NCBI RefSeq assembly: GCF_018398935.1
Contig: NZ_CP074694.1
Span: 4,380,001 to 4,412,000 of the forward strand
Direction of reading: 5' to 3'
Source: Telmatocola sphagniphila
Lineage (GTDB): Bacteria > Planctomycetota > Planctomycetia > Gemmatales > Gemmataceae
DNA length: 32,000 bases
In this document: positions 10,911-32,000 of the stretch, in pieces
Layout: every line of letters begins with the position of its first letter
How positions within the stretch are numbered: the stretch's first letter is position 1
Program-made: the position numbers and the translations under genes
Notes under the pieces: model-generated
Told to the model about the DNA's origin: nothing
Databases searched by the model: none
Seen by the model: the letters and a program-made list of their open reading frames with translations, nothing else

Positions 10911-12323
10911 ATGGCGGAGCAATCTCCGAGAACGATTCGGCTGCCGAAGATGAGTCGGGATGTATTCCTGGAACATCTGAAGCTGAGCGGCCTATTGGAC
11001 GGCAAGGACTTTGATACCGTCATCGGTGGGTTATCGAATGCTCCTCGGGGCCGGGTTCTGGCGCGCGAGCTCGTGGAAAAAGGCTACCTCACCCGCTTCC
11101 AGGCCGAACTTCTGCTGGCCGGTCGAACCCACGGTTTCATCCTCGGACAATACCGCATTCTCGAAGAGATTGGTCGGGGAGGCATGGGCCGGGTCTTCAA
11201 AGCCGAACACCAGACCATGAGCCGAGTGGTCGCTCTTAAGATTCTCGATCCCAAGCTGACCAAAACGGACCGGGCTCGCCTGCTGTTTCAACGCGAAGTC
11301 AAAGCGGCGGCGAAACTCAATCACCCCAACATAGTCACCGCCTTCGACGCCAATCAGATAGCCGATCGCTGCTATCTCGTGATGGAGTACGTCGATGGCC
11401 CGAACCTCAGCGACTTTGTCAAAAAACATGGTCCGCTCCCCGTGACCCAGGCGGCCGATTTCATTCGGCAAGCTGCTCTGGGACTGCAGTTCGCCCACGA
11501 TCTGGGTATGGTACACCGGGATATCAAGCCCGCTAACCTGCTCGTCCAGAAGAACACCAGTAAGTCCGCTGCAAACAGTTTTACAGTCAAGATTCTCGAT
11601 TTCGGTTTGGCTCGGTTGTCGACCTCCGACGATGGAACGATCGATAATTCCGAAACCATTCTGACCAATAAACAGTCGGTCATGGGCACGCCGGATTATC
11701 TGGCACCGGAACAGGCTCGAAATATCCATTCCGTCGATGCCCGCTCCGACCTCTATAGTCTGGGCTGTACCTTCTATTTCCTAGTTACTGGTCAGGTCCC
11801 CTTTGTCGGCGGTACTGCGTTCGAAAAACTGGTTCGCCACACCACGGAAATACCTCGCACCGCCCAACAGGTAAACCCCAGCGTTCCCGATGTGATTTCC
11901 GAAATCATCGAACGTTTGATGGCCAAAGATCCCGACGATCGCTTCCAATCGGGGGCGGAACTGGCCGCCGTGCTCTCTATGCTGGGACAGCCGGAACAGG
12001 GAAGTTGGATTGACGTGAAGCCACTGGCGCAGGAGTCGGAAATTTCCCTCGGCAGCAGCAACTTCCTGCCTCGACCCACCGAAATCGAGATCCCCAGTGA
12101 TATCGATGAACTCTGGGCGAGCCTCGAAGACGATCCCAGCAACGCCAGCACCAACACTTTAACGGGCGATCAGAGCAAAACGACGGTAAATAATACCGAT
12201 ACGATTCGTAAACTGAAGCACGCCGATCACTTGAACTGGATACTTACCGGCGTGATTCTTATCGTTCTGATTCTCGCCGTCCTTGGCATCCGGGCGCTCA
12301 CTCACCAGTTCGATAACGGCTGA
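10911..12323 (+). CDS. serine/threonine protein kinase with a C-terminal TM anchor
   Basis: GRGGMGRVFKA, VALK, HRDIKPANLL, DFGLAR and GTPDYLAPE. The C-terminal TM segment is ILTGVILIVLILAVLGI. Confidence 0.9.
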   Translation: MAEQSPRTIRLPKMSRDVFLEHLKLSGLLDGKDFDTVIGGLSNAPRGRVLARELVEKGYLTRFQAELLLAGRTHGFILGQYRILEEIGRGGMGRVFKAEHQTMSRVVALKILDPKLTKTDRARLLFQREVKAAAKLNHPNIVTAFDANQIADRCYLVMEYVDGPNLSDFVKKHGPLPVTQAADFIRQAALGLQFAHDLGMVHRDIKPANLLVQKNTSKSAANSFTVKILDFGLARLSTSDDGTIDNSETILTNKQSVMGTPDYLAPEQARNIHSVDARSDLYSLGCTFYFLVTGQVPFVGGTAFEKLVRHTTEIPRTAQQVNPSVPDVISEIIERLMAKDPDDRFQSGAELAAVLSMLGQPEQGSWIDVKPLAQESEISLGSSNFLPRPTEIEIPSDIDELWASLEDDPSNASTNTLTGDQSKTTVNNTDTIRKLKHADHLNWILTGVILIVLILAVLGIRALTHQFDNG

Positions 12324-19429: not shown

Positions 19430-21247
19430 ATGATTCGCCATTACCTGCTTGCTAGCTTACTACTGCTGTTCACCAGCCTGTTCTGCACCCCAGCCCGCTC
19501 GGCTGACACCGATAAGAAAAAGGATTCCGGGCCGGTCATTGCTCATATGAAAATCAGCGGCAGCCTCAGCGAAGGTCCGGGAGGCGCTGAAGGTCTGTTC
19601 GGCGGCGGCAACAGCGACAACCTCTCGAGCCGGTTGGAAAAGATCCACAAAGCGAAACTCGACCCGAACGTCAAAGCCCTTTACCTGCAAATTGAAGAAC
19701 CTTCCCTGGGGCTCTTCTCCTTCGGCAAAATCGAAGAGCTCCGCAAGGCCATCGCCGATTTCCGGACCTCCGGCAAACCGGCCGTCGCTTACCTCGAAAG
19801 CATCGGTGGCCTGGAATATCTGATCGCCTCCGCCTGCGATACTATCGCCATCCCGGAGTCGGGCGAATTTGGTCTGACCGGCCTGCACCTGGAAATGCAG
19901 TTCTTCAAGGAGATATTCGAAAAAGTAAAAATCAAAGCCGACTTCCTGACCATGGGCGAAGCCAAAGGCGCTGCCGATCCGTATCTGCGAACGGAAATGA
20001 GCCCGGAGAATCGCAAACAGTACGAAATGGTGCTCGATGATCTCTACGAAAAAAGCCTGATCGAAGGCATCAAGAACGATCGGCCAGCCAAGAAATGGAC
20101 CACCGAACAAGTGAAGGAACTGATCAACACCGCACCCCACACGGCCAAGAAAGCCCTGGAAGTCGGACTGGTCGATCAACTGGCCTACCCCAACGAATTC
20201 GAAGCGAGCCTGATCAAGAAATTCGAAGACGGTAAGAGCAAGATCGTCCGCAACTACGGCAAAAAGGTCGATCCCGATGCGGACAATCCCTTCGCCGCGC
20301 TGATGAAGATCATGCAGCCGCAGAAGAAGACTTCGTCTAAGAAGCCGAAGATCGCCGTGATCTACGCCGTGGGGGAAATCTCCACCGGCAAGAGCGGCGG
20401 CGGCCTGATGGGCGGCCATACGATGGGTTCCACCACCATGGTCGAAGCCATCGAACAGGCCGATAAGGACGAAACGGTGAAAGCCATTGTTCTTCGCATC
20501 GACAGCCCGGGAGGTTCCGCGCTGGCCAGCGACTTGATGTGGAACGCCTTGCGAAACTGCAAAAAACCAGTAATCGCCAGCATGGGCGATGTGGCCGCGA
20601 GTGGCGGCTATTACATTGCCATGGGTGCGAAGAAAGTTTACGCCGAACCGGGTACCCTGACCGGTTCCATCGGCGTACTGGGCGGCAAGCTGGTGCTGGG
20701 TGAAACCTTTAAATGGCTCGGTCTGCATACCCAGACGCTCAACCGCGGTCAGAACGCCGGCTGGTCGTCGACGAACACGATCTTTTCTGAATCGGAACGT
20801 AAGGCCATCACTAATGTGATGTCGAACGTTTACGATCAATTCCTGGATCGCACCGTGCAGAATCGCAAAGCGGCCGGAGTGGACCTGCCTTTGGATAAAC
20901 TCAAGCCAATAGCCGGGGGCCGCATCTGGACCGGTCGGCAGGCGAAAGAACGCGGACTGGTCGATGAACTGGGTACCTTGCATGATGCTTTGGAAGAAGC
21001 CAAGAAGGAAGCCAAGTTCGATCCCAAGGTTGAACCGGAACTGTTGATTCTGCCCGAGCCGACCAACTTCCTGGATCGTTTCCTGGACGGCGGCCTCGGC
21101 GCCCGGGTGAATGTGCTGAATCAACTGGGGCTGAGTTCGGATTCGCTGCTGGGCTTAGGTGAGCATCTGAAAATGCTGGAGCCGTTCTTCAACAACCCGC
21201 GCGAAAAGGTCTGGCTCTTGGCTCCGGTGAATGGAAAGATTCGGTAG
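19430..21247 (+). CDS. sppA: signal peptide peptidase SppA, 67K type (S49)
   Basis: Two S49 halves. Lys context GEAKGAADPY in the N-half; RIDSPGGSALASD and MGDVAASGGYYIA (Ser nucleophile context) in the C-half. I prefer the start at MIRHYLLASLLLLF (TM/signal); the tracked ORF starts at 19334. Confidence 0.9.
   Translation: MIRHYLLASLLLLFTSLFCTPARSADTDKKKDSGPVIAHMKISGSLSEGPGGAEGLFGGGNSDNLSSRLEKIHKAKLDPNVKALYLQIEEPSLGLFSFGKIEELRKAIADFRTSGKPAVAYLESIGGLEYLIASACDTIAIPESGEFGLTGLHLEMQFFKEIFEKVKIKADFLTMGEAKGAADPYLRTEMSPENRKQYEMVLDDLYEKSLIEGIKNDRPAKKWTTEQVKELINTAPHTAKKALEVGLVDQLAYPNEFEASLIKKFEDGKSKIVRNYGKKVDPDADNPFAALMKIMQPQKKTSSKKPKIAVIYAVGEISTGKSGGGLMGGHTMGSTTMVEAIEQADKDETVKAIVLRIDSPGGSALASDLMWNALRNCKKPVIASMGDVAASGGYYIAMGAKKVYAEPGTLTGSIGVLGGKLVLGETFKWLGLHTQTLNRGQNAGWSSTNTIFSESERKAITNVMSNVYDQFLDRTVQNRKAAGVDLPLDKLKPIAGGRIWTGRQAKERGLVDELGTLHDALEEAKKEAKFDPKVEPELLILPEPTNFLDRFLDGGLGARVNVLNQLGLSSDSLLGLGEHLKMLEPFFNNPREKVWLLAPVNGKIR
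21182..21247 (+). repeat. direct repeat copy 1: last 22 codons of sppA (PFFNNPREKVWLLAPVNGKIR*)
   Basis: It recurs at 26595..26660 with almost only synonymous differences. Confidence 0.85.
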
Positions 21248-21270
21248 GAGTAGAAAAGATTAAATTTGTC

Positions 21271-21299
21271 CCACCCCGGCGATGTGCCCAACGGGGTGG
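21271..21299 (+). terminator. sppA rho-independent-type terminator hairpin
   Basis: ccaccccg / cggggtgg, an 8-bp GC-rich stem with a 13-nt loop, followed by ctatttgtt. Confidence 0.6.
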
Positions 21300-21442
21300 C
21301 TATTTGTTAACGCGAGAAAGATCAGGATTCTGAAAAGGCTTCGATCTTCTCCCTATGATGGTGCTGATTTGGAACTCCTCTGGAATACGCACTGGAAGAT
21401 AGCCAGTGCTGCCCGCCGAGCTAATCGAATTGGAAAGCGGCC
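21298..21442 (+). repeat. ~150-nt intergenic repeat, copy C1
   Basis: Shares ggcttcgatcttctcc with C2 and tctggaatacgcactg with C3. It starts ggctatttg, with an inverted partner aagatagcc at 21396. It ends at the gajA ATG. Confidence 0.8.
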
Positions 21443-23299
21443 ATGTATCTTCAAATCGTCCACGTCAAGAATTATCGCTGTTTGCGGGACATAACCGTGT
21501 CATTTTCACCAGGCTTGAATGTCATCGCTGGCGAAAACAATACGGGAAAAACTGCGCTTTTAGACGCCATCAGAGCAGCATTAGGGCCCGCAGCCGCTAC
21601 TGGTGAGGCAATTAGGCTTACTCAGGATGATCGGCATAGGACGAAGGAAGGGACCTATATAGATGCCCCTATATCGGTTAAGTTGATATTTGCTGATCTC
21701 ACGGAGCAGGAACAAGGCCAGTTCATTGACATATTGAATTACAACCCTACTGAGCCGAGCGAATCAACAGCACAAATCAATTTTCAATGGAACTGGAATG
21801 CAAAAACTGGCCGCTATAGCATCAATCGGTGGGGAGGGAGCGCAGGCAGTTCCGAAAGTGGCATTCCAGAAGATGTACTGCAATCTGTGCCCGTGACTCT
21901 CCTCGGAGCTCTAAGAGATGCAGCTTCGGCCTTGTTGCCGGGGAGGAACAGCAGACTCGCCCATTTACTCATCGCTCATGCTACAGAAGAGGAAAAAGAG
22001 TCGCTCGTTAAATTCGTCGTCACAGCTAACAACGCATTGGAGAAAGACAAACTTGTTTCGAGAACCCAAGAGTTAATTAAGACCACATTGCAGAAAGCAT
22101 CAGGGCCGATGATGGCTCAGGAAGCTGCGATCAAAACGGCCGAGCCAGAATTCGATAAAGTGGTTCAGAGTTTGAGACTCGTAATTGCCCGGTTGGGCTC
22201 CAACGGTAATATGGTGCTTGACGAATTACGATCTAATGGGTTAGGCTACAACAATCTTCTTTTTATCGCAACGGTAATGCTAGAGCTCAACGCTGCGAAA
22301 TCTGCCCTGATGCCGCTGTTGCTAGTCGAGGAGCCAGAAGCACATTTACATCCCCAATTGCAGATATTACTTGCCAATTTCCTAAGTGATCCGCAAGGAA
22401 TCCACCAAGCGAAAGTCCAGACTCTCGTAACAACACACTCGCCTACTATTGCTGCGCATGTATCACCGGCAAACTTGCGAATACTTCATCGCGGGAAGGA
22501 TGAAGCATTACGATGTGCCTCATTCGGTGACTGTTCAATTGAAAAGCGTCAACTTCAACAACTTAGGCGAATGTTTGATGTGACTAAGGCTGCCATTCTA
22601 TTCGCTAAAGGAGTACTGTTAGTCGAAGGAATTACTGAAGCATTATTGCTCCCTGTTTTGGCCCGCCGCGAAGGATTCAACCTTGAAGCGGCTGGCGTTT
22701 CGGTAGTACCAGTGTGCGGGGTAGATTTTGTTTCGATTTGCAATCTTTATGGAGATAAAGGACTTCACACCCCTATTGCAGTCGTCACTGATGGGGATTC
22801 AGGAACAGAACGTTGCGGATCTGGGAAGGCTTCGGAATGGGAATCGAAATTGCCGAAGTTTGACACTAACGGGAAACCAATGATCTGTGATCGTGTAGTT
22901 AAATTGAAAAAAGAGTACGAAAATCACGAATTCATCAGGATCCATAACTCTGACGTGACTCTCGAATACTCGCTGGCATCAGCGGGGGAAAAGAACCCCT
23001 CTATCATGTGCGATGTCTGGGTAAACCAGTTCGAGAAGACACCAAAAACCTTGAACCATGAAAAATTGAAGGCCTGCAATGGTAAGCATTCCGAGCAAGT
23101 TCTAACTATTTGGCGAGGTATTTGCCTTGCGGATACAGCATACTCAAAAGCAGAATTCGCTCAAGCGCTTGCCGAGACTTTAGAAGAAAAAAATGTTCAA
23201 GGACAATACCTCATACCTACATCAGATTTTGTCGTTCCAAAATACCTGAAAGACGCATTCGGCCATGTTGCGCAAAAATCAACCAAAGCCTCCAACTGA
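21443..23299 (+). CDS. gajA: Gabija GajA: OLD-family ATPase plus TOPRIM endonuclease
   Basis: 618 aa with the N-terminus MYLQIVHVKNYRCL and Walker A GENNTGKT. ABC-like features are SNGLGYNNLL, Walker B LLLVEEPEAHLHPQLQ and TTHSP. The C-terminal TOPRIM domain has LLVEGITEALLL (Glu) and VVTDGDS (DxD). It is paired with a UvrD-like helicase, as in class 2 OLD / Gabija. Confidence 0.85.
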   Translation: MYLQIVHVKNYRCLRDITVSFSPGLNVIAGENNTGKTALLDAIRAALGPAAATGEAIRLTQDDRHRTKEGTYIDAPISVKLIFADLTEQEQGQFIDILNYNPTEPSESTAQINFQWNWNAKTGRYSINRWGGSAGSSESGIPEDVLQSVPVTLLGALRDAASALLPGRNSRLAHLLIAHATEEEKESLVKFVVTANNALEKDKLVSRTQELIKTTLQKASGPMMAQEAAIKTAEPEFDKVVQSLRLVIARLGSNGNMVLDELRSNGLGYNNLLFIATVMLELNAAKSALMPLLLVEEPEAHLHPQLQILLANFLSDPQGIHQAKVQTLVTTHSPTIAAHVSPANLRILHRGKDEALRCASFGDCSIEKRQLQQLRRMFDVTKAAILFAKGVLLVEGITEALLLPVLARREGFNLEAAGVSVVPVCGVDFVSICNLYGDKGLHTPIAVVTDGDSGTERCGSGKASEWESKLPKFDTNGKPMICDRVVKLKKEYENHEFIRIHNSDVTLEYSLASAGEKNPSIMCDVWVNQFEKTPKTLNHEKLKACNGKHSEQVLTIWRGICLADTAYSKAEFAQALAETLEEKNVQGQYLIPTSDFVVPKYLKDAFGHVAQKSTKASN

Positions 23300-25070
23300 A
23301 GAGCAAGAGGCTGCTTTACGTTCCGATGCTCGAATCACGGTTGTCCGCGCATGTCCTGGTGCTGGCAAGACCGAAGTATTCGTAGAGGCCATTCGAACGC
23401 GCCTCCGGCATTGGGACCATCTGAATGGCGGACTCGCAGCACTCTCATTTACAAATGTAGCCAGGGACACCATCGAGGAACGAATTGGGGGGGCGACACC
23501 TTATCCACATTTTATTGGTACACTGGACGCTTTCAGCTATCGCTTCATCGTCAAGCCTTTCGGGCATCTGGTTGGACTACCACAAAACGCCATTCGTCTT
23601 TTCCCCGCCACTATAGCCAAAGTACTAGAAGATCCAGTGATAAAGGTGGGTGACAAAAACCACGAACGAGCCTCGATTTACTCCATCTCTTTTTTCGGCG
23701 GTGATCGTGAAAAACCTCGGATGAAGACAAAGCTGTCAAGGTCCAATGATTTCGTTGTACCTCCAGCAAGTGAAATTCGAGTTCTGAATGAGAAAAAGCG
23801 ATTTTGGAAGAGCACTGGTATAGTCACTCACTCGGATTGCCATTACTTGTCTTGTTGTATCGTCAATCATCCAACTTTTGGAAAGAACGTAAGAAAGATT
23901 CTGACCTCTCGTTTCCCAGTCATACTAATCGATGAGCTCCAAGATACAGGTTTCTTTTTGGCCCGCGCTTTTCTTGCAATTCTTGCAGAAGAAAAATCGT
24001 TCGGTTTTGTAGTGGGGGATCCTAACCAAGCCATTTATGGATTCAGTGGTGCTAACCCTAGTATTTTCAAAGATTTCGAATCACTTGCAAACGCAAAATC
24101 GTTGTCTCTTTCACTCAGCCATAGATGCTCGAAGGCTGTGGCAAAAGTAGCCAACGCTTTATCCTCTACGGGGAGTGAACTTATACCTATACCTTCAGCA
24201 ATTGACGGATCGGCTTGTCTTAGTGTTCATGATCTAGAGGAAGCGGTTCTTTCTCCGGCGCATGTGGAATTTTTGAAAAGCCTCAAAATTGGAAGTTCTC
24301 TTGCAATTCTCTCACGTAGGACAAAAACTGCCTGCGGTCTGAAAGGCGAGATAGTCAAGGATGAATTTAGAGGAGTTTCAAAAGCTGCTAGAAGGGTCCA
24401 TCGCGCCTTACAACTCCTCATCAATGGCGAACCACGCGAGGCACACAAATTACTCCAAACAGAACTTGCAAGGATTATCCTAGGTGATGAAACGGCTAAA
24501 GCGATTGCTTGGGAAGAAAGGGGCATTTCGCAATTGAATTTGCGAAACGCCGTATTCAGCGTCTTGAGGAATTCATTCGTGTATATCCCGAATGAGTCAT
24601 GGAACGAGTGGGTAAAGCGAACTCGAGATAAAGTTATGGAAGCGGCGAAATCGCTCGGCTGGACAGACGATGGAAAGGCATTCCTCACATACAGGTCGTG
24701 CAACGAGAAGGGCAATACTCCTCGTTCCAATTTCATGAAAACTAGTTCTTCCATGGATTGGGATGTGGTGAGTACAATTTCAACTATCCACAAAGTCAAA
24801 GGTGCGGAATTTGATACTGTGATCTTATTCGTGCCAAAAACTACAAAAGGAAATTGCCCATCGATAGAGTGGTGGCCTGGTGCTACTGACGCTGATGAAA
24901 GAAGAATCGCCTATGTCGCGGTATCTCGGGCAAAAATTCGTTTCGTGTTGTGTGTCCACAAATCAGTTTTCAAAGCGATAGAGCAGCTTCGACCTGATTT
25001 CATCAAGTGTTTCGAAGAATCGATTCCGATGCCGCAAGTCTCCAAGCCCGAAACACCATCATTATTTTGA
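23265..25070 (+). CDS. gajB: Gabija GajB: UvrD/PcrA-like SF1 helicase
   Basis: 601 aa with Walker A CPGAGKT and Walker B ILIDELQDT. Also GDPNQAIYGFSGA, TIHKVKGAEFDTVILFV and RIAYVAVSRAK. Its ATG lies 35 nt inside the gajA 3' end. Confidence 0.85.
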   Translation: MLRKNQPKPPTEEQEAALRSDARITVVRACPGAGKTEVFVEAIRTRLRHWDHLNGGLAALSFTNVARDTIEERIGGATPYPHFIGTLDAFSYRFIVKPFGHLVGLPQNAIRLFPATIAKVLEDPVIKVGDKNHERASIYSISFFGGDREKPRMKTKLSRSNDFVVPPASEIRVLNEKKRFWKSTGIVTHSDCHYLSCCIVNHPTFGKNVRKILTSRFPVILIDELQDTGFFLARAFLAILAEEKSFGFVVGDPNQAIYGFSGANPSIFKDFESLANAKSLSLSLSHRCSKAVAKVANALSSTGSELIPIPSAIDGSACLSVHDLEEAVLSPAHVEFLKSLKIGSSLAILSRRTKTACGLKGEIVKDEFRGVSKAARRVHRALQLLINGEPREAHKLLQTELARIILGDETAKAIAWEERGISQLNLRNAVFSVLRNSFVYIPNESWNEWVKRTRDKVMEAAKSLGWTDDGKAFLTYRSCNEKGNTPRSNFMKTSSSMDWDVVSTISTIHKVKGAEFDTVILFVPKTTKGNCPSIEWWPGATDADERRIAYVAVSRAKIRFVLCVHKSVFKAIEQLRPDFIKCFEESIPMPQVSKPETPSLF

Positions 25071-25252
25071 TGACTTCTTGAATCGTGAGAGGGAGGAAAT
25101 TGAAAACGAGAAGACCGATTGTAACCGTGAGCTGTAATCATCGAATTGTTCCAGAGGCTTGTTACCTTGGCGTCCGCCTGATAACAGCGGCAGGAGACAG
25201 GTTATTCCTATCATTCGTCTCAAATCATTGAAAAGTAATCTGTTGGTGCTCG

Positions 25253-25412
25253 AGCTATTTGCCAGAGTACGAAAAATCAAGCTTCTAAAACGGCTTCGAT
25301 CTTCTCCAATGACTCTGCTGATTTGGGAACTTCTCTAGAATACGCACATGCAGATAGCCAGTGCCACGCAAGCCAAATCAGGAGATGGGGTTAGGATTAG
25401 AGAGAATCTAGC
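25253..25412 (+). repeat. ~150-nt intergenic repeat, copy C2 (3' end hit by IS630)
   Basis: agctatttg...cagatagcc (25351), plus tccaatgactctg and gggttaggatta, both shared with C4. Confidence 0.8.
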
Positions 25413-25414
25413 TA

Positions 25415-26582
25415 GTGTAGTGCCTCAGAAATAGCGTTACCTTTAGCTACTTTTTGCGGTTTACTCTATAGAGAAGGAGAAAACCCATGAAAGTCGCGCT
25501 GCCAATTTCGCTGTCCGAGGAGGAACGTCAAACTTTGACTGCTTGGTCTCGGGGACGAAGCACTCCCGCTCGGCTGGTCCTGCGGGCGAAGATCATACTC
25601 GCGGCGGCCGCAGGTGTACTGAACAAGGATATTGCTCAGCAGTGCGGCACGTCGAAACCCACGGTGGCGCGCTGGCGGACCCGATTTGCGAAGCTGCGTT
25701 TGGCGGGTATCGAACGGGACGCTTCGCGGCCGGGTCGAACGCCAGCGATCAGCGGGAAAGTCGTCGAAGAAATTCTCCGCAAGACCACTCAGGAGAAACC
25801 ATCCGGTGCGACTCATTGGAGCACACGAACGATGGCCCAAGAGGTGGGAGTGAGCAAAGCCACCGTGCAGCGGGTTTGGTCGTCCCATGGCCTGAAGCCT
25901 CATTTGCTTAAGACCTTCCAGGTATCGAATGATCCTCAATTCGCCGAGAAACTGTGGGATGTAGTGGGCTTGTACTTGAACCCTCCCGAGCACGCCCTGG
26001 TGCTGAGTTGCGATGAGAAGAGTCAGATTCAAGCCCTTGATCGCACGCAAAAAAGCTTGCCGATGGTACCCGGCCGTTGCGGCACTCTGACTCACGATTA
26101 CATGCGTCATGGCACCACCACTCTGTTCGCGGCTTTGAACGTGGCAGAAGGAGTAGTAATTGGCGAATGCATGCCGCGACATCGACACCAGGAATGGATC
26201 AAGTTTCTCAAACGGATCGATGCCGCCACCGATCCGTCCTTGGACTTGCATTTGATCGTGGACAACTACGCTACGCACAAGCATCCCAAGGTTCGGCGTT
26301 GGTTGGCCCGACATCCTCGATTCCACATGCATTTCACCCCCACGAGCAGTTCCTGGATGAATCTGGTGGAGCGTTGGTTTCGCGACTTGACGGACAAACG
26401 ACTGCGTCGAGGCACATTTCGAAGTGTGCCGCAGTTGATCCAGGCGATTGAAGACTACATCGATCATCACAACAACACAGGAAAGGGATTCCAATGGACT
26501 GCCAAAGCCGAGGCTATTCTGGAGAAAGTCCGCCGGGCGAGGGCTACCCTGGATAAAACACCTTCCGTGTGAGACACTACAC
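25415..26582 (+). mobile_element. IS630-family insertion sequence, apparently intact
   Basis: Terminal inverted repeats are gtgtagtgcctca (left) and tgagacactacac (right), matching 12 of 13. TA flanks both ends (25413-14 and 26583-84). The reconstructed target gCTAGt fits the CTAG/TA preference of IS630. It contains a single DDE transposase ORF. Confidence 0.85.
25487..26572 (+). CDS. IS630-family (Tc1/mariner-like) DDE transposase
   Basis: 361 aa with an N-terminal HTH region ([23 protein letters not shown]; [11 protein letters not shown]). DDE contexts are [25 protein letters not shown] and MNLVERWF. The stop codon lies inside the right IR. Confidence 0.9.
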
Positions 26583-26594
26583 TAGTGCCACCCG

Positions 26595-26660
26595 CCGTTC
26601 TTTGCGAATCCTCGCGAAAAAGTCTGGCTCTTGGCTCCGGTAAATGGGAAAATCCGGTAA
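26595..26660 (+). pseudogene. orphan copy of the sppA 3' end (22 codons plus stop), direct repeat copy 2
   Basis: Translates PFFANPREKVWLLAPVNGKIR*, versus PFFNNPREKVWLLAPVNGKIR* in sppA. Nine codons differ only at silent third positions (including TAG to TAA) and one codon is replaced (N to A). There is no ORF upstream; an in-frame TAG lies at 26583. Confidence 0.85.
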
Positions 26661-26673
26661 ATCTTTTTGCATC

Positions 26674-26700
26674 ACCCATCGGTAATGGATAACGGTGGGT
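26674..26700 (+). terminator. terminator-like hairpin homologous in position to the sppA terminator
   Basis: acccatcg / cggtgggt, an 8-bp stem with one G-U pair and an 11-nt loop, 13 nt after the orphan stop codon. The T-tail is weak. Confidence 0.4.
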
Positions 26701-26799: not shown

Positions 26800-27252
26800 A
26801 TGATGTCTTCGGGAGATTCGGGCAATATTTCTACAAAGGGAAAGTCTCATCCCACGGATACCCGAGACGCAAACACCTCGCCATCGGACGATGGAACCGC
26901 CACCTGGTTCCTGTTAGGCATCGGGCTCATCGCCCTGATCTGCTTGATTATCGGAATCTTATCGCACGGATTTGAATGGAAGCGTATTCTGACGGCGGCG
27001 GGTTCCATGCTGTCGGGAATCGCCTTCATGGCCATTGGCTTGCTAGAGTTGGAATGGCTGGAACGCATCGTCGGAATCTTCGATGGAATTTTCGGCCTGG
27101 TGGTCCAATGGTGCTGGACGAGCTGGTATGGATCTCTTTCAGACGCGGACGCGCTGGGCCGTCGGGGAGCCAGCGTCATCTGGATGATCGCCGGCATAGC
27201 GTTGTACATATCCGGGTGCCTGATTGCCTTGCGGGTGATCAAGGTTTTTTGA
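26800..27252 (+). CDS. small hypothetical membrane protein (3-4 TM)
   Basis: 150 aa. A polar N-terminus is followed by TM spans WFLLGIGLIALICLIIGIL, AAGSMLSGIAFMAIGLL and VIWMIAGIALYISGCLIAL. No family recognised. Confidence 0.6.
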   Translation: MMSSGDSGNISTKGKSHPTDTRDANTSPSDDGTATWFLLGIGLIALICLIIGILSHGFEWKRILTAAGSMLSGIAFMAIGLLELEWLERIVGIFDGIFGLVVQWCWTSWYGSLSDADALGRRGASVIWMIAGIALYISGCLIALRVIKVF

Positions 27253-27477
27253 ATCCCTCTTTCCCCTCGCTCCCTCTAAATTCACAAAATTTGATGCGAG
27301 GCGGTGTCCGAAAATTTCTTCGGGAATATCGACGTGGGGATCTCCTTGAAGCACTCGGCAAGATGGCCCTCTCCCTAAGACAGTGTTCGCGCAACGACTG
27401 ATCTTGCTCGAATTATTGATCTGAAGTACTCTGTCTGCGCTATTCCTTTTTGAGAGACAAAAATGCGAATGCTTACA

Positions 27478-27487
27478 TTTTTTTTTT
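27478..27487 (+). repeat. homopolymeric T10 tract separating an ATG plus signal-peptide-like leader from the Sel1 ORF
   Basis: ATG 27463 (MRMLT) runs into T10. The Sel1 frame is open upstream through FFFLIIQIIYHSSVHA but has no ATG there. T9 would fuse the two frames. Confidence 0.85.
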
Positions 27488-27517
27488 CTGATTATTCAAA
27501 TAATTTATCACAGTTCA

Positions 27518-28678
27518 GTGCATGCTCAAACCGCATCGAATGTCTCCGAACGCTTGAAGGAGGATCCTTTTCGTGACCAGCTAAAGCAGTTCGAAAAGTG
27601 TCGATTTGATGCGAAGAAAAGCGAAGCGTTTTTCAAGGAGATTGGTCCGAAAGAAATTCAAGTTTGGGAAAAAGCGGTCGAGAATGGTTATCCCATAGCC
27701 CAATACTTTTACGCGCAATGTCTCCATAACGGATATGGTGTTGCGAAGGATCAGGATGCCGCCATGAATTGGTTTCGAAAGTCGGCAGAAGGCGGGCTAC
27801 CCATTGCCATGTCTTGTATCGGTGCTCATTTCGAATTCGATTCAAAAGAAAAGAATTTGATTCAAGCCATCAAGTGGTATCAGAAAGCGGCGGCGCTGGA
27901 CGATAGTGACGGGATGTATCTTCTGGGTAGAAATTCTCTGTCGGACAAAAGGAACAAGGATGATCTGGATCTGGCTTTGAGCTGGCTGAAAAAGTCAGCC
28001 GATTTTGGGAATCCGGCGGCGATGTACCAGCTGGGAGTTTACAGCGAATCCTTGAATAATATTGAAGGATTTAAGGTCGCTGCGGAATGGTATCGCAAAG
28101 CAAGCGAACAGAATGTCGCCGTGGCGATGAATCGACTTTCACAACTATATATGGTTGGTCGCGGTTTTGTTGCGGACGAGAAAAAAGCATTTCAGTGGAT
28201 GCTGAAAGCAGCTGAGGCGGGCGATCCGGATTCCATGCTCGAAGTCGCTAAATTCCTCAAATTGGGGTATGGTGTCGAAAAAAATCTTCGCGAGAGCCAG
28301 AAGTGGATTCTTTCGGCAACTAAGAAATTTGAAGAAGGCGCGAAGCGAAAAGAGATTTACTCGGTGCGAAAGTTGGCTTCAATGTATTGGCAGGGATTGG
28401 GAGTTACTAAAAATAAGTCCGAGGCTGTTAACTTGCTTCGAGCAGCTGCGAAATTGGGGGATCAGCGATCCAAAGATTTGCTGCTGGAAATGGTTTTAAA
28501 CGAAGAGCTTGTCTCTCGAGATGGGATATTGATATCCTCGAAAACATCCGGGGATCTATCGCAAATTCGGGTCATCGATTCTCCCCTTTTGAACGGTTTA
28601 GAAATCAGACAAAAACTGCCGCCTGCATTCGAGCTCCGCTGCGATTACTTGGCGGAGGAATCTCCTCCGTCGAAATGA
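27518..28678 (+). CDS. Sel1-like repeat (SLR/TPR-family) protein
   Basis: 386 aa from GTG 27518 with about 7 SLR units (AQYFYAQCLHNGYGVAKDQDAAMNWFRKSAEGG, AIKWYQKAAALDD, ALSWLKKSADFGNPAAMYQLG, AAEWYRKASEQN, AFQWMLKAAEAGDPDSM and others). The true N-terminus is probably upstream (see the T10 tract). Confidence 0.85.
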   Translation: MHAQTASNVSERLKEDPFRDQLKQFEKCRFDAKKSEAFFKEIGPKEIQVWEKAVENGYPIAQYFYAQCLHNGYGVAKDQDAAMNWFRKSAEGGLPIAMSCIGAHFEFDSKEKNLIQAIKWYQKAAALDDSDGMYLLGRNSLSDKRNKDDLDLALSWLKKSADFGNPAAMYQLGVYSESLNNIEGFKVAAEWYRKASEQNVAVAMNRLSQLYMVGRGFVADEKKAFQWMLKAAEAGDPDSMLEVAKFLKLGYGVEKNLRESQKWILSATKKFEEGAKRKEIYSVRKLASMYWQGLGVTKNKSEAVNLLRAAAKLGDQRSKDLLLEMVLNEELVSRDGILISSKTSGDLSQIRVIDSPLLNGLEIRQKLPPAFELRCDYLAEESPPSK

Positions 28679-28824: not shown

Positions 28825-28970
28825 GGTTTATTTGTCAGCGTACGAAAACTTAATCCTCTGAAAAGGCTAAGATCCTCATCCTGTGACTCTTATAAGTTAG
28901 CGTTTTTTCTGGAATACGCACTGACGGATAGCCACCCAAGACAAATCGTGATAAAGGGTTAAAATCAAAG
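28825..28970 (+). repeat. ~150-nt intergenic repeat, copy C3
   Basis: ggtttatttgtcagcgtacgaaaa..., then tctggaatacgcactg, cggatagcc (28925) and gataaagggttaaaatc. Confidence 0.75.
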
Positions 28971-29311
28971 TGATGACCTGGTCAGTACCAGCCTGCCGAG
29001 CCCTGCAAATCACTGTCAGTACTTTTTTATTTATTTTTTTATTTTAACATTAATTTCTATTTACTTTTTATTAAGTAAGATGTAGATTAGTTTAAGAAAG
29101 CATTACGAAATGACTTTTGTGTCACCTGGGTTTTAGTAATACTCCTCCTCATCCGTCGAAATCCGTTCTTGATTCTTCGAGTAGAGTTTCTTTCAAGTAG
29201 GAGAGTAGTCTATCTGGTTTGAATTTTACTTCTGTTAAAATTTCAACGGCTTCATCCTATAGTTCTTGCAGATCTTTCAGAAGGAGATTGGCGCAGTGCC
29301 TGTATTTAAGG

Positions 29312-29345
29312 TGGCTCCGGTGTTGTTCGACGACGGGGAGACACC
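29312..29345 (+). repeat. vestigial third copy of the sppA 3' end plus terminator arm
   Basis: tggctccggtg is identical to sppA 21219-21229. acgggg...ggctatttt then parallels acggggtggctatttg at the C1 junction. About 45 nt are missing relative to copy 1. Confidence 0.5.
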
Positions 29346-29496
29346 GGCTATTTTCCAGTGTCAAAAAGATTGGAATTCTGGAATTGCATTGACCCTCATC
29401 CAATGACTCTGATGATCTAGGAATTCGAAAAGATGCATTAGCAGATAGCTAATGCCATCCAAAAGAAATCAGGATAAAGGGTTAGGATTAAAATCT
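29346..29496 (+). repeat. ~150-nt intergenic repeat, copy C4
   Basis: ggctattttccagtg..., then tccaatgactctg, cagatagct (29442) and gataaagggttaggattaaaatc. Confidence 0.75.
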
Positions 29497-29788
29497 GACA
29501 GCCATCCCAACGCGAGCTTAGTGTTGGGAGATTCAGCGATCTACGCTGCGAGAATTAAGCTTAAGTATCTCAGCTACCTCTCTTTTTGGTGTTGCCTTCA
29601 CAAGATCAGTTGAACGCCGAGACTAGGTCGATTTATCGGCTCTTGGTGGCTAGTAATTTTCTATAACAGTGAGGTAGCGGTTTGTGTTGATACGATCATG
29701 GTAGGGCCGAGATCGCACTCTGAGCAAATAGATTGAAAAGTATTCAGGTAATTGAAATTCCTTAGGGGGATAATGCATATATTGCACC

Positions 29789-29836: not shown

Positions 29837-30763
29837 ATGACAGAGATTCAGGCAACAACCTTTAGTAGGCTCTCACGATTAGTATTAACTGGTATCATGA
29901 TTTTGATCGCCGTACTTATTTTACTATTTGTTGGTGTTTTTTCTGCCGAATCCAAACAAATAGATTTAACATCTATCAATAAATCGGACTATAATAATAA
30001 TGAATATCCTAATTTTTTTACCAAAGAACTCCCACCTGTAATCATAGATGATGATGATGCCGAACTAATTTCGACAACGTTCACAGTAAAAAATGATAGA
30101 GAACGGGCGATCACTTTTTCTCCTGTGAGGATGTCTTGTTCATGTCAGGATGCTGAACTCAGTAAGCAAACTTTACAACCGGGCGAATCGACGATACTGC
30201 GCATGGGACTGAGACCCGCGACCCGATCAGGTGCTCAAAAGATCACCTGTGCTATCGATGAAATAGGTGGCGATACAAAAACGTTCGAACTTCGGACTAC
30301 GATCTATCGAAAAGCCCAATTTTCAGAACCGGTGATTCATTTCGGAATGGTTGATCCTTTATCAGTATACGAGAAGTCGTTCGCGATCACATTTGCAGCG
30401 ACTACCGAAACACAACTACCGAAGAATATCGTTTTCTCATCTCAAGGTACCGTAATATCGAAAATAAATGAGGTCATAGAGCCAATGAAGGATGGCTGTT
30501 GGGTCAAGCGGATATCCGCCACTAGCAAACTGATAGCACCGACGGAACTCGGATCAGGCGGATCGAATTTGACGGCTACATACTCAATCGGTACAGAATC
30601 GCCGCAAATGCAATCTATCCAAGTCGATTGGTTTGTCCGATCGCCGTTTTCTGTCAGTCCATCTCGAGTAGGGATACTGCCTGCCGAAGTTAAAGACGCA
30701 AAGCAAAGCAAATCAGACGCAACCTTCAAATTCGGTCTTCAACAAATAAACCCTTCAAAATAA
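29837..30763 (+). CDS. membrane-anchored DUF1573-like protein, N-terminal 308 aa of a frame-split gene
   Basis: N-terminal TM anchor LVLTGIMILIAVLILLFVGVF. FTVKNDRERAITFSPVRMSCSCQDAELSKQTLQPGESTILRMGL resembles the DUF1573 beta-sandwich motif. The region is low-GC. Confidence 0.7.
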   Translation: MTEIQATTFSRLSRLVLTGIMILIAVLILLFVGVFSAESKQIDLTSINKSDYNNNEYPNFFTKELPPVIIDDDDAELISTTFTVKNDRERAITFSPVRMSCSCQDAELSKQTLQPGESTILRMGLRPATRSGAQKITCAIDEIGGDTKTFELRTTIYRKAQFSEPVIHFGMVDPLSVYEKSFAITFAATTETQLPKNIVFSSQGTVISKINEVIEPMKDGCWVKRISATSKLIAPTELGSGGSNLTATYSIGTESPQMQSIQVDWFVRSPFSVSPSRVGILPAEVKDAKQSKSDATFKFGLQQINPSK

Positions 30764-30951
30764 CTAAAATTATCAGCCCACATTCATCAATTCAGGCAAA
30801 AGTAATCAACAAAGATGAAACTCTTGCAATGATCGAAGTAACTATATTGACGAACACTTTAGCTGATTTTCAATATGGCGACCTGATAATTGAAACCGAC
30901 AATCCAAAAGCACTTACAGTTACGATACCCGTAGCCATAATGCCTAGTTAA
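30694..30951 (+). pseudogene. C-terminal continuation of the DUF1573-like gene in the -1 frame
   Basis: The frame is open from 30694 to TAA 30949-51 and encodes ..NKPFKITKIISPHSSIQAKVINKDETLAMIEVTILTNTLADFQYGDLIIETDNPKALTVTIPVAIMPS. It has no suitable start of its own and overlaps the end of the upstream frame. Confidence 0.6.
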
Positions 30952-30985
30952 TAAAAAACCTTTTTACTCATCAAGGGGACATCAG

Positions 30986-31450
30986 ATGGCAAACGCAAGA
31001 ACTACGGTGACAGCATGGAGCGTGATCGCAACGGGAGTTTTGCTCATTGCAGCCTCCGCGTCAAACGCAACCGATTGGCCCACCTTGGGAACTGCGACAA
31101 CTTTTGTTAGGAATAGATGTATCCAACAAGACCCATACTCTAACGGCGGTAGTTGCACGCATTATAATTATTGCATTGCTAGAAATAACACAGATCCAAA
31201 CTTAACTGGGGTGTGCCCAGGATTTCCGAATATGAAACGAACTGATTTTCGTTCATATGGCTATTGCGTTTTGGATGGACTTGAAAATGGAGGTAGCAGC
31301 TGCGATCAATATACTAATCCTGTTTGCGCTCGAATTACCTTTTATGAGAATGCAGGTTGTACTAGTATGTCAACCTGTAATATGTGGGTGATCATCAATG
31401 GCAACGCCTGCCTCGCGCCTGTCGCTGTTGCCCCTCCGCCTGCTGATTGA
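30986..31450 (+). CDS. secreted cysteine-rich hypothetical protein (10 Cys)
   Basis: 154 aa with signal-like AWSVIATGVLLIAASASNA, ten Cys spread over the mature part, and a Pro-rich C-terminus. AAGGGGA lies upstream of the ATG. Confidence 0.65.
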   Translation: MANARTTVTAWSVIATGVLLIAASASNATDWPTLGTATTFVRNRCIQQDPYSNGGSCTHYNYCIARNNTDPNLTGVCPGFPNMKRTDFRSYGYCVLDGLENGGSSCDQYTNPVCARITFYENAGCTSMSTCNMWVIINGNACLAPVAVAPPPAD

Positions 31451-31506
31451 TAAAGTTAATTAATTTCTAGGGCAGTAATATTTGCAACTTCAAGCATGGA
31501 TACTCT

Positions 31507-32000
31507 ATGAAATACAATTGGCCCTTTCGCGACTGCGGTACCGTTGTCGCAATCTGCATTTTACTTGTCTTGTGCCCGAATATTTGCCATGCACTTTCTG
31601 ATGATGAGCAAATCACTCGGTCGGCAATAATAGGATATTCATCTAATATTGAGTCGTTTTCGTTTTACACAGTTAAATTCCAATTCACATCTGCAAAATC
31701 TTCAACTCATGAAGATGCTATACAAGGAAAGTGGGAAGGCGCAAAGTCATATATTGGCGTTCATACTGTGGATGGTGAATTCGAATCTTACGAACACGAT
31801 GGAAAACCTCCACCTAAAATATCGGCCCCTTCAAATGGCAAAGCAAAAGGTGGTGTGTTTTTCCAACAAATAAATGACTTTATGGAAGAAAAGTATATTC
31901 GATCTCCATCGGGCACAGCAAAGTATACTCGGGGTATTGATGCTATTAACTTGCGGCGGTTAGATACTGATGACCCATTTGACTTTGCGACGCCACTATC
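31507..32000 (+). CDS. secreted hypothetical protein, N-terminal part (runs off the window; absent from the ORF track)
   Basis: I read this frame codon by codon from ATG 31507 to the window edge and found no stop. It encodes MKYNWPFRDCGTVVAICILLVLCPNICHALSDDEQ..., a signal-like N-terminus. Confidence 0.6.
   Translation, partial: MKYNWPFRDCGTVVAICILLVLCPNICHALSDDEQITRSAIIGYSSNIESFSFYTVKFQFTSAKSSTHEDAIQGKWEGAKSYIGVHTVDGEFESYEHDGKPPPKISAPSNGKAKGGVFFQQINDFMEEKYIRSPSGTAKYTRGIDAINLRRLDTDDPFDFATPL

Follow-up and report, generated by a model that had tools for sequence, protein, structure and literature searches.

In Pseudomonas aeruginosa the core defence hotspots are "additive islands" flanked by core genes, and it has been proposed that they are transferred by recombination in the conserved flanks (PMC10250203). 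The locus described here was analysed in a stretch of 32,000 nucleotides of Telmatocola sphagniphila (Gemmataceae), below called the window, and resembles these hotspots in several respects. It occupies a fixed spot between a DUF11 gene and the signal peptide peptidase gene sppA on one side and a kinase gene on the other, its content varies among relatives, its GC content is below that of the genome, and a Gabija system is found among unrelated cargo (Table 1). Unlike in the P. aeruginosa hotspots, the border is free of tRNA and tmRNA genes and one IS630 is the sole marker of mobile genetic elements, whereas five copies of a private repeat of 150–220 nt (termed R) and an intact orphan tail of 22 codons of sppA are present.

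Some protein-coding genes serve as targets for elements with an integration site in the 3′ end of a gene. For islands and prophages which bring a replacement end with them, the classical targets are tRNA and tmRNA genes, at least in the account cited (Williams 2002, cited in PMC10250203). The present locus is similar to such elements in that a direct repeat of the gene end (A1 and A2, 66 nt, 82–83% identity) surrounds cargo while the gene itself is intact, and in that the two copies differ, as they do when one of them stems from the previous host of the element. On the contrary, no integrase is found, the low-GC island is not confined to the DNA between the repeats, and the right joint looks like a shortened repeat unit fused at a microhomology of 4 nt.

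Upon uptake of foreign DNA, homology-facilitated illegitimate recombination takes place in Acinetobacter, Pseudomonas stutzeri and Streptococcus pneumoniae; a duplicated part of the anchor is, to our knowledge, not its usual outcome. The process is also mentioned in PMC6382021. The locus may be a product of such an event, for which no enzymes of mobile elements are needed: one joint may be an illegitimate one at a short G+C-rich microhomology, with sppA or R as a possible anchor on the other side, but part of the anchor is duplicated instead of recipient DNA being deleted. With integron arrays and CALINs, in which defence systems can be cassettes, the locus shares co-oriented cargo, a repeat of ~150 nt in between and the lack of a recombinase inside the array. 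In contrast to these arrays, R has no attC-like hairpins, neither intI nor attI is present in the vicinity, and no R″/L″–L′/R′ boxes could be recognised in R by eye in an informal scan.

Table 1. Features of the sppA locus (window positions unless another locus is named)
Feature	Position	Strand	Remarks
sppA, signal peptide peptidase, S49	19430–21247	+	Pfam Peptidase_S49 1.1e-61; 605 aa in the Logan assembly
A1, working sppA 3′ end	21181–21247	+	last 22 codons, stop, plus preceding G common to both copies
hp1, G+C-rich stem-loop 3′ of the sppA stop	21270–21299	+	likely terminator
R1	21299–21442	+	reaches the gajA ATG; palindrome GCACTGG-N7-CCAGTGC at 21389–21409
gajA, ATPase + OLD/TOPRIM nuclease	21443–23299	+	PADLOC GajA 5.9e-154, full length
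gajB, UvrD-like helicase	23265–25070	+	PADLOC GajB 1.6e-61; 35-nt overlap with gajA
R2, portion left of IS630	25254–25414	+	palindrome 25344–25364
IS630-family insertion sequence, in R2	25412–26585	+	transposase 25487–26572
R2 remainder (GTGCCACCC) and GCCG joint with A2	26585–26597	+	R2 minus IS630 aligned to R3
A2, orphan sppA end	26594–26660	+	~5.4 kb downstream of A1; no in-frame start codon
hp2, G+C-rich stem-loop 3′ of A2	26673–26700	+	−15.1 kcal/mol, z −1.5
Cargo right of A2	26800–28678	+	150-aa protein (KIH39_17615, function unknown), 386-aa Sel1-repeat protein
R3	28827–29001	+	palindrome damaged, 6-nt deletion, 28918–28937
R4	29347–29517	+	palindrome GCATTAG-N7-CTAATGC, 29435–29455; two compensatory pair changes
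Further low-GC cargo	29837–32000	+	DUF1573 protein, 154-aa protein
R5, partial copy	L005 8880–8930		directly next to the convergent kinase gene, at its 3′ end

In T. sphagniphila ~14.2 kb of low-GC DNA with 11 called genes, all on the forward strand, separate sppA from a Ser/Thr kinase gene. In a relative with a 60% identical SppA a convergent Ser/Thr kinase gene follows ~285 nt after sppA. The loci L092, L093 and L094 share the gene order DUF11 (−), sppA (+), kinase (−) with this same distance, and the best match of their kinase in T. sphagniphila is at 35607–36596 (extended coordinates) with 53% identity, compared to 40% for the paralogue. In other relatives (L003, L095) one or three genes are found after sppA. 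The sppA–kinase interval is an accessory and defence hotspot with conserved core-gene flanks and variable content.

The GC content of the island is 0.37–0.50 as compared to 0.52–0.60 in the core; it stays at 0.37–0.48 for ~7 kb past A2, and the island extends beyond the window to ~35430 (window-equivalent coordinates). By synteny with the relative, A2 lies in the middle of the island. With sppA and the kinase gene ~14.2 kb of low-GC DNA apart, A2 does not mark the end of the AT-rich island. A first-pass annotation of this DNA had described the interval between the two tails as more AT-rich than the core; its low GC content is real, but it continues past A2, and the IS630 inside the interval is itself GC-rich (0.53–0.59). 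The same annotation had stated that the window contains no integrase, with which our domain searches agree, and had proposed to look for recombinases further downstream. In the 5.3 kb that follow the window (L005) the searches revealed neither an integrase nor a recombinase, and there is no recombinase within ~19 kb on the upstream side or ~16 kb on the downstream side. The only mobile-element genes of the island are those of the single IS630, and none of the data point to an element that is mobile by itself and carries an integrase.

The sppA gene was also called in the Logan assembly (L004, 7988–9805), and the best SppA in the protein database is 74% identical. A1 is the true 3′ end of this S49 peptidase gene; the ends of the relatives carry the same motif, REKVWL.AP. 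A2 is preceded by an in-frame TAG at 26583–26585, as read directly from the frame. The repeat search aligned 21181–21246 with 26594–26659 (66 nt, 83% identity), and in the comparison of 21182–21247 with 26595–26660 54 of 66 bases and 20 of 21 residues are identical, the exception being an exchange of Asn for Ala. The two copies of the sppA end had thus been located and read correctly in the first-pass annotation, which had also counted nine codons with silent differences only. Indeed eight sense codons and the stop codon differ at the third position alone, so that outside the Asn/Ala codon all nine single-base differences are at third positions (P = (1/3)^9 = 5e-5), a signature of purifying selection. 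As the differences are silent, we agree that both tails evolved as functional sppA ends in separate lineages, and since both were under coding constraint in different lineages, one of them came by horizontal transfer. The Ala of A2 is also the residue of the nearest relative and is therefore a genuine lineage variant and not a sign of decay. The silent-change rate (8/19) equals that found for this sppA and a 76% identical relative of it (0.43). Together with the non-coding DNA after the stop codons, which cannot be aligned, this rate indicates two deeply diverged orthologous tails. In the duplicated tail we see a genuine scar left by DNA that came from a diverged relative.

The similarity of the two copies has sharp limits. 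On the left it begins abruptly at gCCGTTCTT, and the 60 nt upstream of A1 and A2 show no clear similarity (the score was reached in 100 of 2000 shuffles). On the right, the 63-nt region 21248–21310, which contains the hp1 stem, folds with −18.4 kcal/mol (z −2.0). A G+C-rich stem follows both copies, as had been noted before, but the sequences of these "similarly built" hairpins are not significantly alike (365 of 2000 shuffles), and demonstrable homology of A1 and A2 therefore stops at the stop codon. The 20-mer GTCTGGCTCTTGGCTCCGGT occurs at two places in the window, A1 and A2, and nowhere else, with an expectation of 0. As a special site this identical core is not significant, as five unchanged silent sites at a rate of 42% have P ~0.07. 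We also searched for a mosaic structure of sppA by its GC3, which is flat along the gene at 0.55–0.85 without a step.

Apart from A1 and A2 no trace of sppA was detected. Paralogous remains, which the first-pass annotation had named as a possible source of A2, were not found, as tblastn matches the 22-codon tail alone, and nhmmer did not reveal a third copy of the tail. By eye, additional remnants seemed to be present upstream of R2, R3 and R4 and after R1, R3 and R4, with candidates at 29163 (CCGTTCTT) and 29306 (AAGGT..GGCTCCGGTG). They were rejected: their local alignments are no better than those of shuffled sequences, and compared in register they show no significant identity. A search with nhmmer gave no hit at E<100, and 11-mers that match equally well are present by chance at 32087 and 35476. 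None of 76 other, distant sppA loci has a duplicate of the tail, the degenerate pattern NPREKVWLxAP has no match in metagenome or viral contigs, and the SppA search of genome contigs returned only relatives of ≤50% identity. A second instance of the R2|A2 joint or of the element was not found in the genome, metagenome and viral collections searched. An empty site of the 5.4-kb block, the check proposed in the first-pass annotation, is likewise lacking from these collections, as none of them contains a close relative. The sole empty site that was found is that of the 14-kb island as a whole, in loci at family-level distance.

Between the two tails gajA encodes the Pfam domains AAA_15, AAA_21 and OLD-like_TOPRIM and gajB the domains UvrD-helicase and UvrD_C. 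With both genes recognised, as already in the first-pass annotation, they constitute a Gabija system, which is predicted to act against phages. The nearest GajA proteins (70% identity) are encoded in unrelated islands and contexts without R and without sppA, and no plasmid relatives of the Gabija block were found. Beside sppA no homologs of the 150-aa protein encoded to the right of A2 were detected. The IS630, too, had been correctly identified: its terminal inverted repeats of 16 nt (25412–25427 and 26570–26585) are 94% complementary, TA is found on each side (25413–25414 and 26583–26584), and the transposase has DDE_3 and HTH domains and resembles annotated IS630 transposases. As the Logan assembly is broken at both ends of the IS630 and shows variant bases at 26500 and 26524, the element is present in multiple copies in the genome.

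The R2|A2 joint gives a hint how the second tail came to its present place. Without IS630, R2 runs straight into A2 and can be aligned with R3 up to GCCG. Past this motif R3 and R4 read GAGC, but R2 switches to the sppA sequence TTC; the expected continuation of R is taken from R3 and R4 and from an ambiguous alignment of R1. GCCG is common to the R consensus (R3 GCCGAGC, R4 GCGAGC) and to sppA (gaGCCGttc) and comprises 4 nt only. The fusion of the 3′ end of R2 with codon −22 of sppA at these 4 nt resembles illegitimate recombination by the host more than an att core. In addition, the codon usage of A1 fits the resident sppA (log-likelihood difference 4.2, from eight informative codons), whereas that of A2 fits the island slightly better, and it is the left half of the tails that accounts for nearly all of this contrast. 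The resident-like codon usage of A1 means that A2 may have been carried in with the DNA on its right, against the direction assumed in the first-pass annotation. Based on these sequence features we lean toward A1, hp1 and R1 as the resident DNA and A2 as a passenger of the right-hand DNA; the reverse direction, with the Gabija block and A1 incoming, is less favoured.

We therefore suggest, with a probability of about one half, that the orphan tail is a scar of host recombination in an additive island of accessory genes between sppA and the convergent kinase gene. A fragment of the corresponding site in a diverged relative would have been joined in together with the last 66 nt of that relative's sppA, and as the imported DNA carried the sppA end of the relative, two orthologous ends now lie 5.4 kb apart. 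On the right side, illegitimate recombination by the host at GCCG would have created the R2|A2 joint (26593/26594), and on the other side homologous recombination, with sppA or an R unit as its site, would have made the connection. The pathway we infer could have been a linear one-sided event or the integration of a circularised fragment by a single crossover. No integrase encoded by the island would have been involved, and IS630 would have inserted into R2 later. In line with this reading, the outer copies R1 and R5 carry CCCGCYG after the palindrome, which is absent from the inner copies.

As the main alternative, the first-pass annotation suggested that an element brought a replacement end with it. 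Fully worked out, this would mean that a 4.2-kb cassette consisting of A1, hp1, R1, gajAB and R2 (before the IS630 insertion) integrated site-specifically into the 3′ end of sppA, supplied the replacement end and left the original tail of the host, A2, as attR, the recombinase acting in trans from another place in the genome or having been lost. A site-specific element leaves exactly such a direct repeat of the gene end around its cargo, and the intact sppA is what is expected after integration at the 3′ end of a gene. The left boundary is sharp with nine identical bases (GCCGTTCTT), and a crossover in the 20-nt stretch that is identical in A1 and A2 would make the left half of A1 resident and that of A2 foreign, which fits the codon usage. 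In addition, the conserved R palindrome is laid out like the core site of a recombinase. Nevertheless, we regard this cassette as rather unlikely, as no integrase is encoded in the block, the rest of the 14-kb island or the flanks, as the island extends past A2, and as R2 looks shortened at the joint in comparison to R3 and R4. Neither a second joint or element anywhere in the searches nor a duplicated tail at the 76 other sppA loci speaks for it, and the arm changes of R4 suggest a hairpin over a protein half-site. What stands of the earlier proposal is the horizontal transfer of one tail; a discrete 5.4-kb element that brought the replacement end is less well supported, given tails that do not bracket the island, the missing recombinase, the joint at GCCG and a resident-like A1.

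Quite improbable in our view is a more general form of site-specific recombination, in which R units are the attachment sites of a cassette system of the Gemmataceae that works with an integrase in trans and is docked at the 3′ end of sppA. The palindrome, with arms of 7 bp and a spacer of 7 nt, would then be the candidate core of the attachment sites. Such a system would stack modules such as Gabija, sometimes with replacement gene ends, and would be integron-like in its logic but with non-attC sites and with the end of a protein-coding gene as the docking point. Outside the island, neither window positions 1–21000 nor 97 further loci (1 Mb in total) contain a copy of R, and three matches of viral contigs to a 17-base R pattern are due to chance. 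The compensatory changes in the arms of R4 suggest that the palindrome forms a hairpin rather than a half-site for a protein. As a known RNA R could not be identified (no Rfam family; the sole match is sR60 with E 0.71), nor does it resemble attC: the single-stranded DNA folds of R1–R4 on both strands have z values from −2.8 to +0.9 and no common long hairpin. The folds share only a stem of 7–8 bp, and the RNAalifold consensus is weak (−9.2 kcal/mol).

The close neighbourhood of IS630 and A2 (9–11 nt) and the multiple copies of IS630 in the genome could point to recombination between two IS630 copies or to aberrant transposition as the event that placed the A2 DNA beside R2. We consider this very improbable, as the intact 16-nt inverted repeats with TA on each side are like those of a simple insertion, as, judged by R3 and R4, the sequence continues across the two flanks as a single R unit, and as 9 nt of R lie between IS630 and A2. 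Hardly tenable, finally, is a duplication in place or a decayed paralogous sppA tail without any horizontal transfer, for which the sole argument is that small tandem or dispersed duplications are common, since neutral decay would have hit all codon positions evenly and not left nine silent differences, since no further part of sppA can be detected around A2, and since the nearest relative shares its Ala.

Taken alone, the host-recombination scar which we favour discloses no new mechanism. The R family is the sole potentially new element of the locus and would matter only if it were proven to be a recombination site. The sppA–kinase interval adds a documented accessory and defence hotspot in the Planctomycetota, a phylum whose defence-island architecture is little described. 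Direct traces of hotspot content moving between diverged lineages are rare, and the intact orphan tail within this interval is one of them. It indicates that pieces of the flanking core gene travelled with this content and thus bears on the question how hotspots without integrases are filled.

A repeat search of the window paired 21181–21246, at the true end of the S49 signal peptide peptidase gene sppA (A1), with 26594–26659, in an orphan second copy of this end (A2), over 66 nt with 83% identity. The first-pass annotation had described two such segments which differ almost only synonymously, and both the sequences and this description could be confirmed. In the coding frame 54 of 66 bases and 20 of 21 residues are identical; eight sense codons, as well as the stop, differ in the third base only, and a single codon is changed at all three bases (AAC, Asn, in A1 vs. 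GCG, Ala, in A2). All nine differences outside this codon are at third positions, for which P = (1/3)^9 = 5e-5 if the position of a change were random. The alanine is also present in the nearest SppA relative, and the C-terminal motif ..REKVWL.AP.... ends the proteins of relatives as well. The 20-mer GTCTGGCTCTTGGCTCCGGT is common to A1 and A2 and within the window unique to them (expected 0), and the homology has a sharp left limit at gCCGTTCTT. A2 has no in-frame start codon, is preceded by a TAG three codons upstream and carries no signs of decay since it was orphaned. Further sppA-tail remnants spotted by eye failed shuffles, register tests and nhmmer.

Similarly built hairpins had been proposed to follow both copies. 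G+C-rich stems are indeed present after each of them, but the sequences of the two stem–loops (hp1 and hp2) are not significantly alike, as 365 of 2000 shuffles score as well. Thus, the demonstrable homology stops at the stop codon. Silent changes are found in 8 of the 19 silently changeable codons, the same rate as the 0.43 obtained over the whole gene between this sppA and a relative that is 76% identical, and the non-coding sequences past the stop codons are no longer alignable. This silent rate together with the unalignable non-coding sequence shows that the tails are orthologous ends which have long diverged under coding constraint, rather than the result of an in-place duplication and subsequent decay. 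The earlier suggestion of two functional ends from different lineages is thereby supported, and either A1 or A2 is of foreign origin.

No close relative was found in any collection searched; the best SppA match is 74% identical in the protein database and 50% identical in species-representative genomes, and no metagenome or viral contig matched a degenerate DNA pattern of the sppA tail. Therefore, an empty-site comparison is feasible only at family-level distance. An SppA with about 60% identity to that of T. sphagniphila (Gemmataceae) is encoded on three contigs, all of which have the order DUF11/CLIPPER protein (−), sppA (+), Ser/Thr kinase (−), the last two genes lying about 285 nt apart. 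The same DUF11 gene is located upstream of sppA in the window. Two paralogous kinase genes flank the region (see table), and the kinase beside sppA in these relatives is matched by the downstream one only (best match at 35607–36596 of the extended sequence, 53% identity vs. 40% for the upstream paralogue). Given this gene order, the sequence from 21248 to about 35430 (∼14.2 kb) is extra DNA here. The empty site corresponds to this whole island. A1 and A2 do not bracket the AT-rich DNA, since it extends beyond A2. In the sppA–kinase spacer of one of the three contigs (L092, 11700–11850) another palindromic repeat, GGGACAAGCCTNNAGGCTTGTCCC, occurs four times; it is REP-like in looks.

The same genome is also represented by two Logan contigs (SRR14506984), the second of which adds about 5.3 kb beyond the window. 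The GC content of the island is 0.37–0.50, IS630 excepted, compared to 0.52–0.60 in the core, and all 11 genes called are on the + strand. Judged by the genes alone, gajA and gajB constitute a Gabija system (PADLOC; GajA 5.9e-154, GajB 1.6e-61). They overlap by 35 nt (23265–23299), as do the genes of the most similar Gabija operons (GajA 70% identical), which suggests from sequence that the two genes are translationally coupled. The other cargo, without match to any further defence family, comprises Sel1, DUF1559 and DUF1573 proteins and proteins of no assigned function. Homologues of KIH39_17615 (47–66% identity) are found on metagenome contigs in unrelated neighbourhoods; neither these neighbourhoods nor the Gabija relatives nor plasmid searches gave further information. 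The sole mobility gene is the IS630 transposase. An integrase had been reported absent from the window; neither an integrase nor another recombinase could be identified in the island and its flanks, including the added sequence. Between two of the repeats described below, R3 and R4, lies the gene-free stretch 29000–29340, which at 0.37 is poorer in GC than any other part of the window. It contains long runs of T/A (ttttttatttatttttttatttt) but neither a convincing ORF nor a family match.

Five copies of a repeat, R, of roughly 150–220 nt each are spaced through the island, with pairwise identities of 60–74%. Neither the remainder of the window nor 97 further loci contain a copy, R has no Rfam match, and a search of viral contigs gained nothing. 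The best-conserved feature is the palindrome GCACTGG-N7-CCAGTGC. The R4 version is GCATTAG-N7-CTAATGC, and its two compensatory pair changes suggest that it behaves as a hairpin. As R5 adjoins the 3′ end of the kinase gene, the palindrome may be the terminator of this gene. Directly after the palindrome the outer copies R1 and R5 have CCCGCYG, which is absent from the inner three.

Features of the island and its surroundings (L005, Logan contig of T. sphagniphila reaching past the window end)
Feature	Position	Strand	Remark
R1	21299–21442		between sppA terminator and gajA ATG
R2	25254–25414 + 26585–26597		after gajB; split by IS630
150-aa ORF	26800–27252	+	KIH39_17615, 100% identical
141-aa ORF	26976–27401	+	overlaps 150-aa ORF in different frame
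R3	28827–29001
R4	29347–29517
R5, partial	L005 8880–8930		abuts kinase gene 3′ end
Ser/Thr kinase gene, upstream	10911–12323		∼7 kb upstream of sppA
Ser/Thr kinase gene, downstream	L005 8937–10139		far island end

The insertion sequence within R2 belongs to the IS630 family and has 16-nt terminal inverted repeats with TA at each side. The Logan assembly breaks at both of its ends (25412–26585), and the contig end differs from the window in two bases inside the element (26500 and 26524), so IS630 is present in several, slightly different copies. After in silico excision R2 ...GTGCCA-CCCGCCG aligns with R3 ...GTACCAGCCTGCCG. Beyond the aligned part R3 continues with GAGC and R4 with GCGAGC, but R2 with TTCTTT, which is already A2. 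R2 thus looks cut short at its joint with A2. As sppA reads gaGCCGttc at the corresponding point, the joint lies on the 4-nt GCCG common to both partners. Although the microhomology is short, the joint looks more like one that illegitimate, microhomology-guided recombination would leave than like an att core.

We suggest, with a probability of about one half, that the orphan tail is a scar left by host recombination in a hotspot island of the additive kind. DNA from this spot in a diverged relative, with 66 nt of that relative's sppA in it, would have been joined in, one side being closed at GCCG through illegitimate recombination and the opposite side through homologous recombination, for which either sppA or R could have served. 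A linear event is conceivable, as is the single-crossover integration of a circularised fragment. It appears unlikely that the locus is instead an integrase-dependent cassette that brought a replacement sppA end, with its recombinase acting in trans or lost: the direct repeats of the sppA end, the intact sppA gene and the layout of the R palindrome are in line with such a cassette, but the integrase is missing, A1 and A2 are not at the island limits, R2 is truncated and a second instance was not found in any collection searched. An origin of the arrangement by IS630-mediated rearrangement is very improbable, because both flanks of the IS read through as one R unit. Duplication in place or a decayed paralogous sppA is scarcely credible, as the silent-site pattern is at odds with both and no further piece of sppA was detected.

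Concerning the direction of transfer, A1 continues the codon usage of the resident sppA much better than A2 does (log-likelihood difference 4.2), with nearly all of this contrast coming from codons left of the 20-nt core. The codon usage of the island fits A2 slightly better, and there is no GC3 step along sppA. Based on codon usage and the likeness of R1 and R5 we lean towards A1–hp1–R1 being resident and A2 a passenger of the DNA to its right. Transfer the other way round is also conceivable, and a crossover inside the 20-nt core may have made both tails hybrids. Of the element at the sppA 3′ end proposed in the first-pass annotation, the horizontal origin and recombination at this place are supported, but the discrete bracketed unit is not, and the transfer may have run opposite to the direction proposed.

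The locus shares direct repeats with islands integrating at the 3′ end of genes, but it encodes no integrase, and the repeats do not mark its boundaries. As R does not fold like attC sites, the locus is neither an integron nor a CALIN. Additive accessory and defence hotspots flanked by core genes have been described for Pseudomonas aeruginosa (PMC10250203). The island of T. sphagniphila works like such a hotspot and is likewise flanked by core genes; it differs in that it has no tRNA gene or, apart from IS630, markers of mobile genetic elements, and in that it contains an orphan gene tail and a private repeat. In further relatives sppA is followed by one or three genes, so the content of the spot varies, and the sppA–kinase spacer seems to be prone to lineage-specific repeats.
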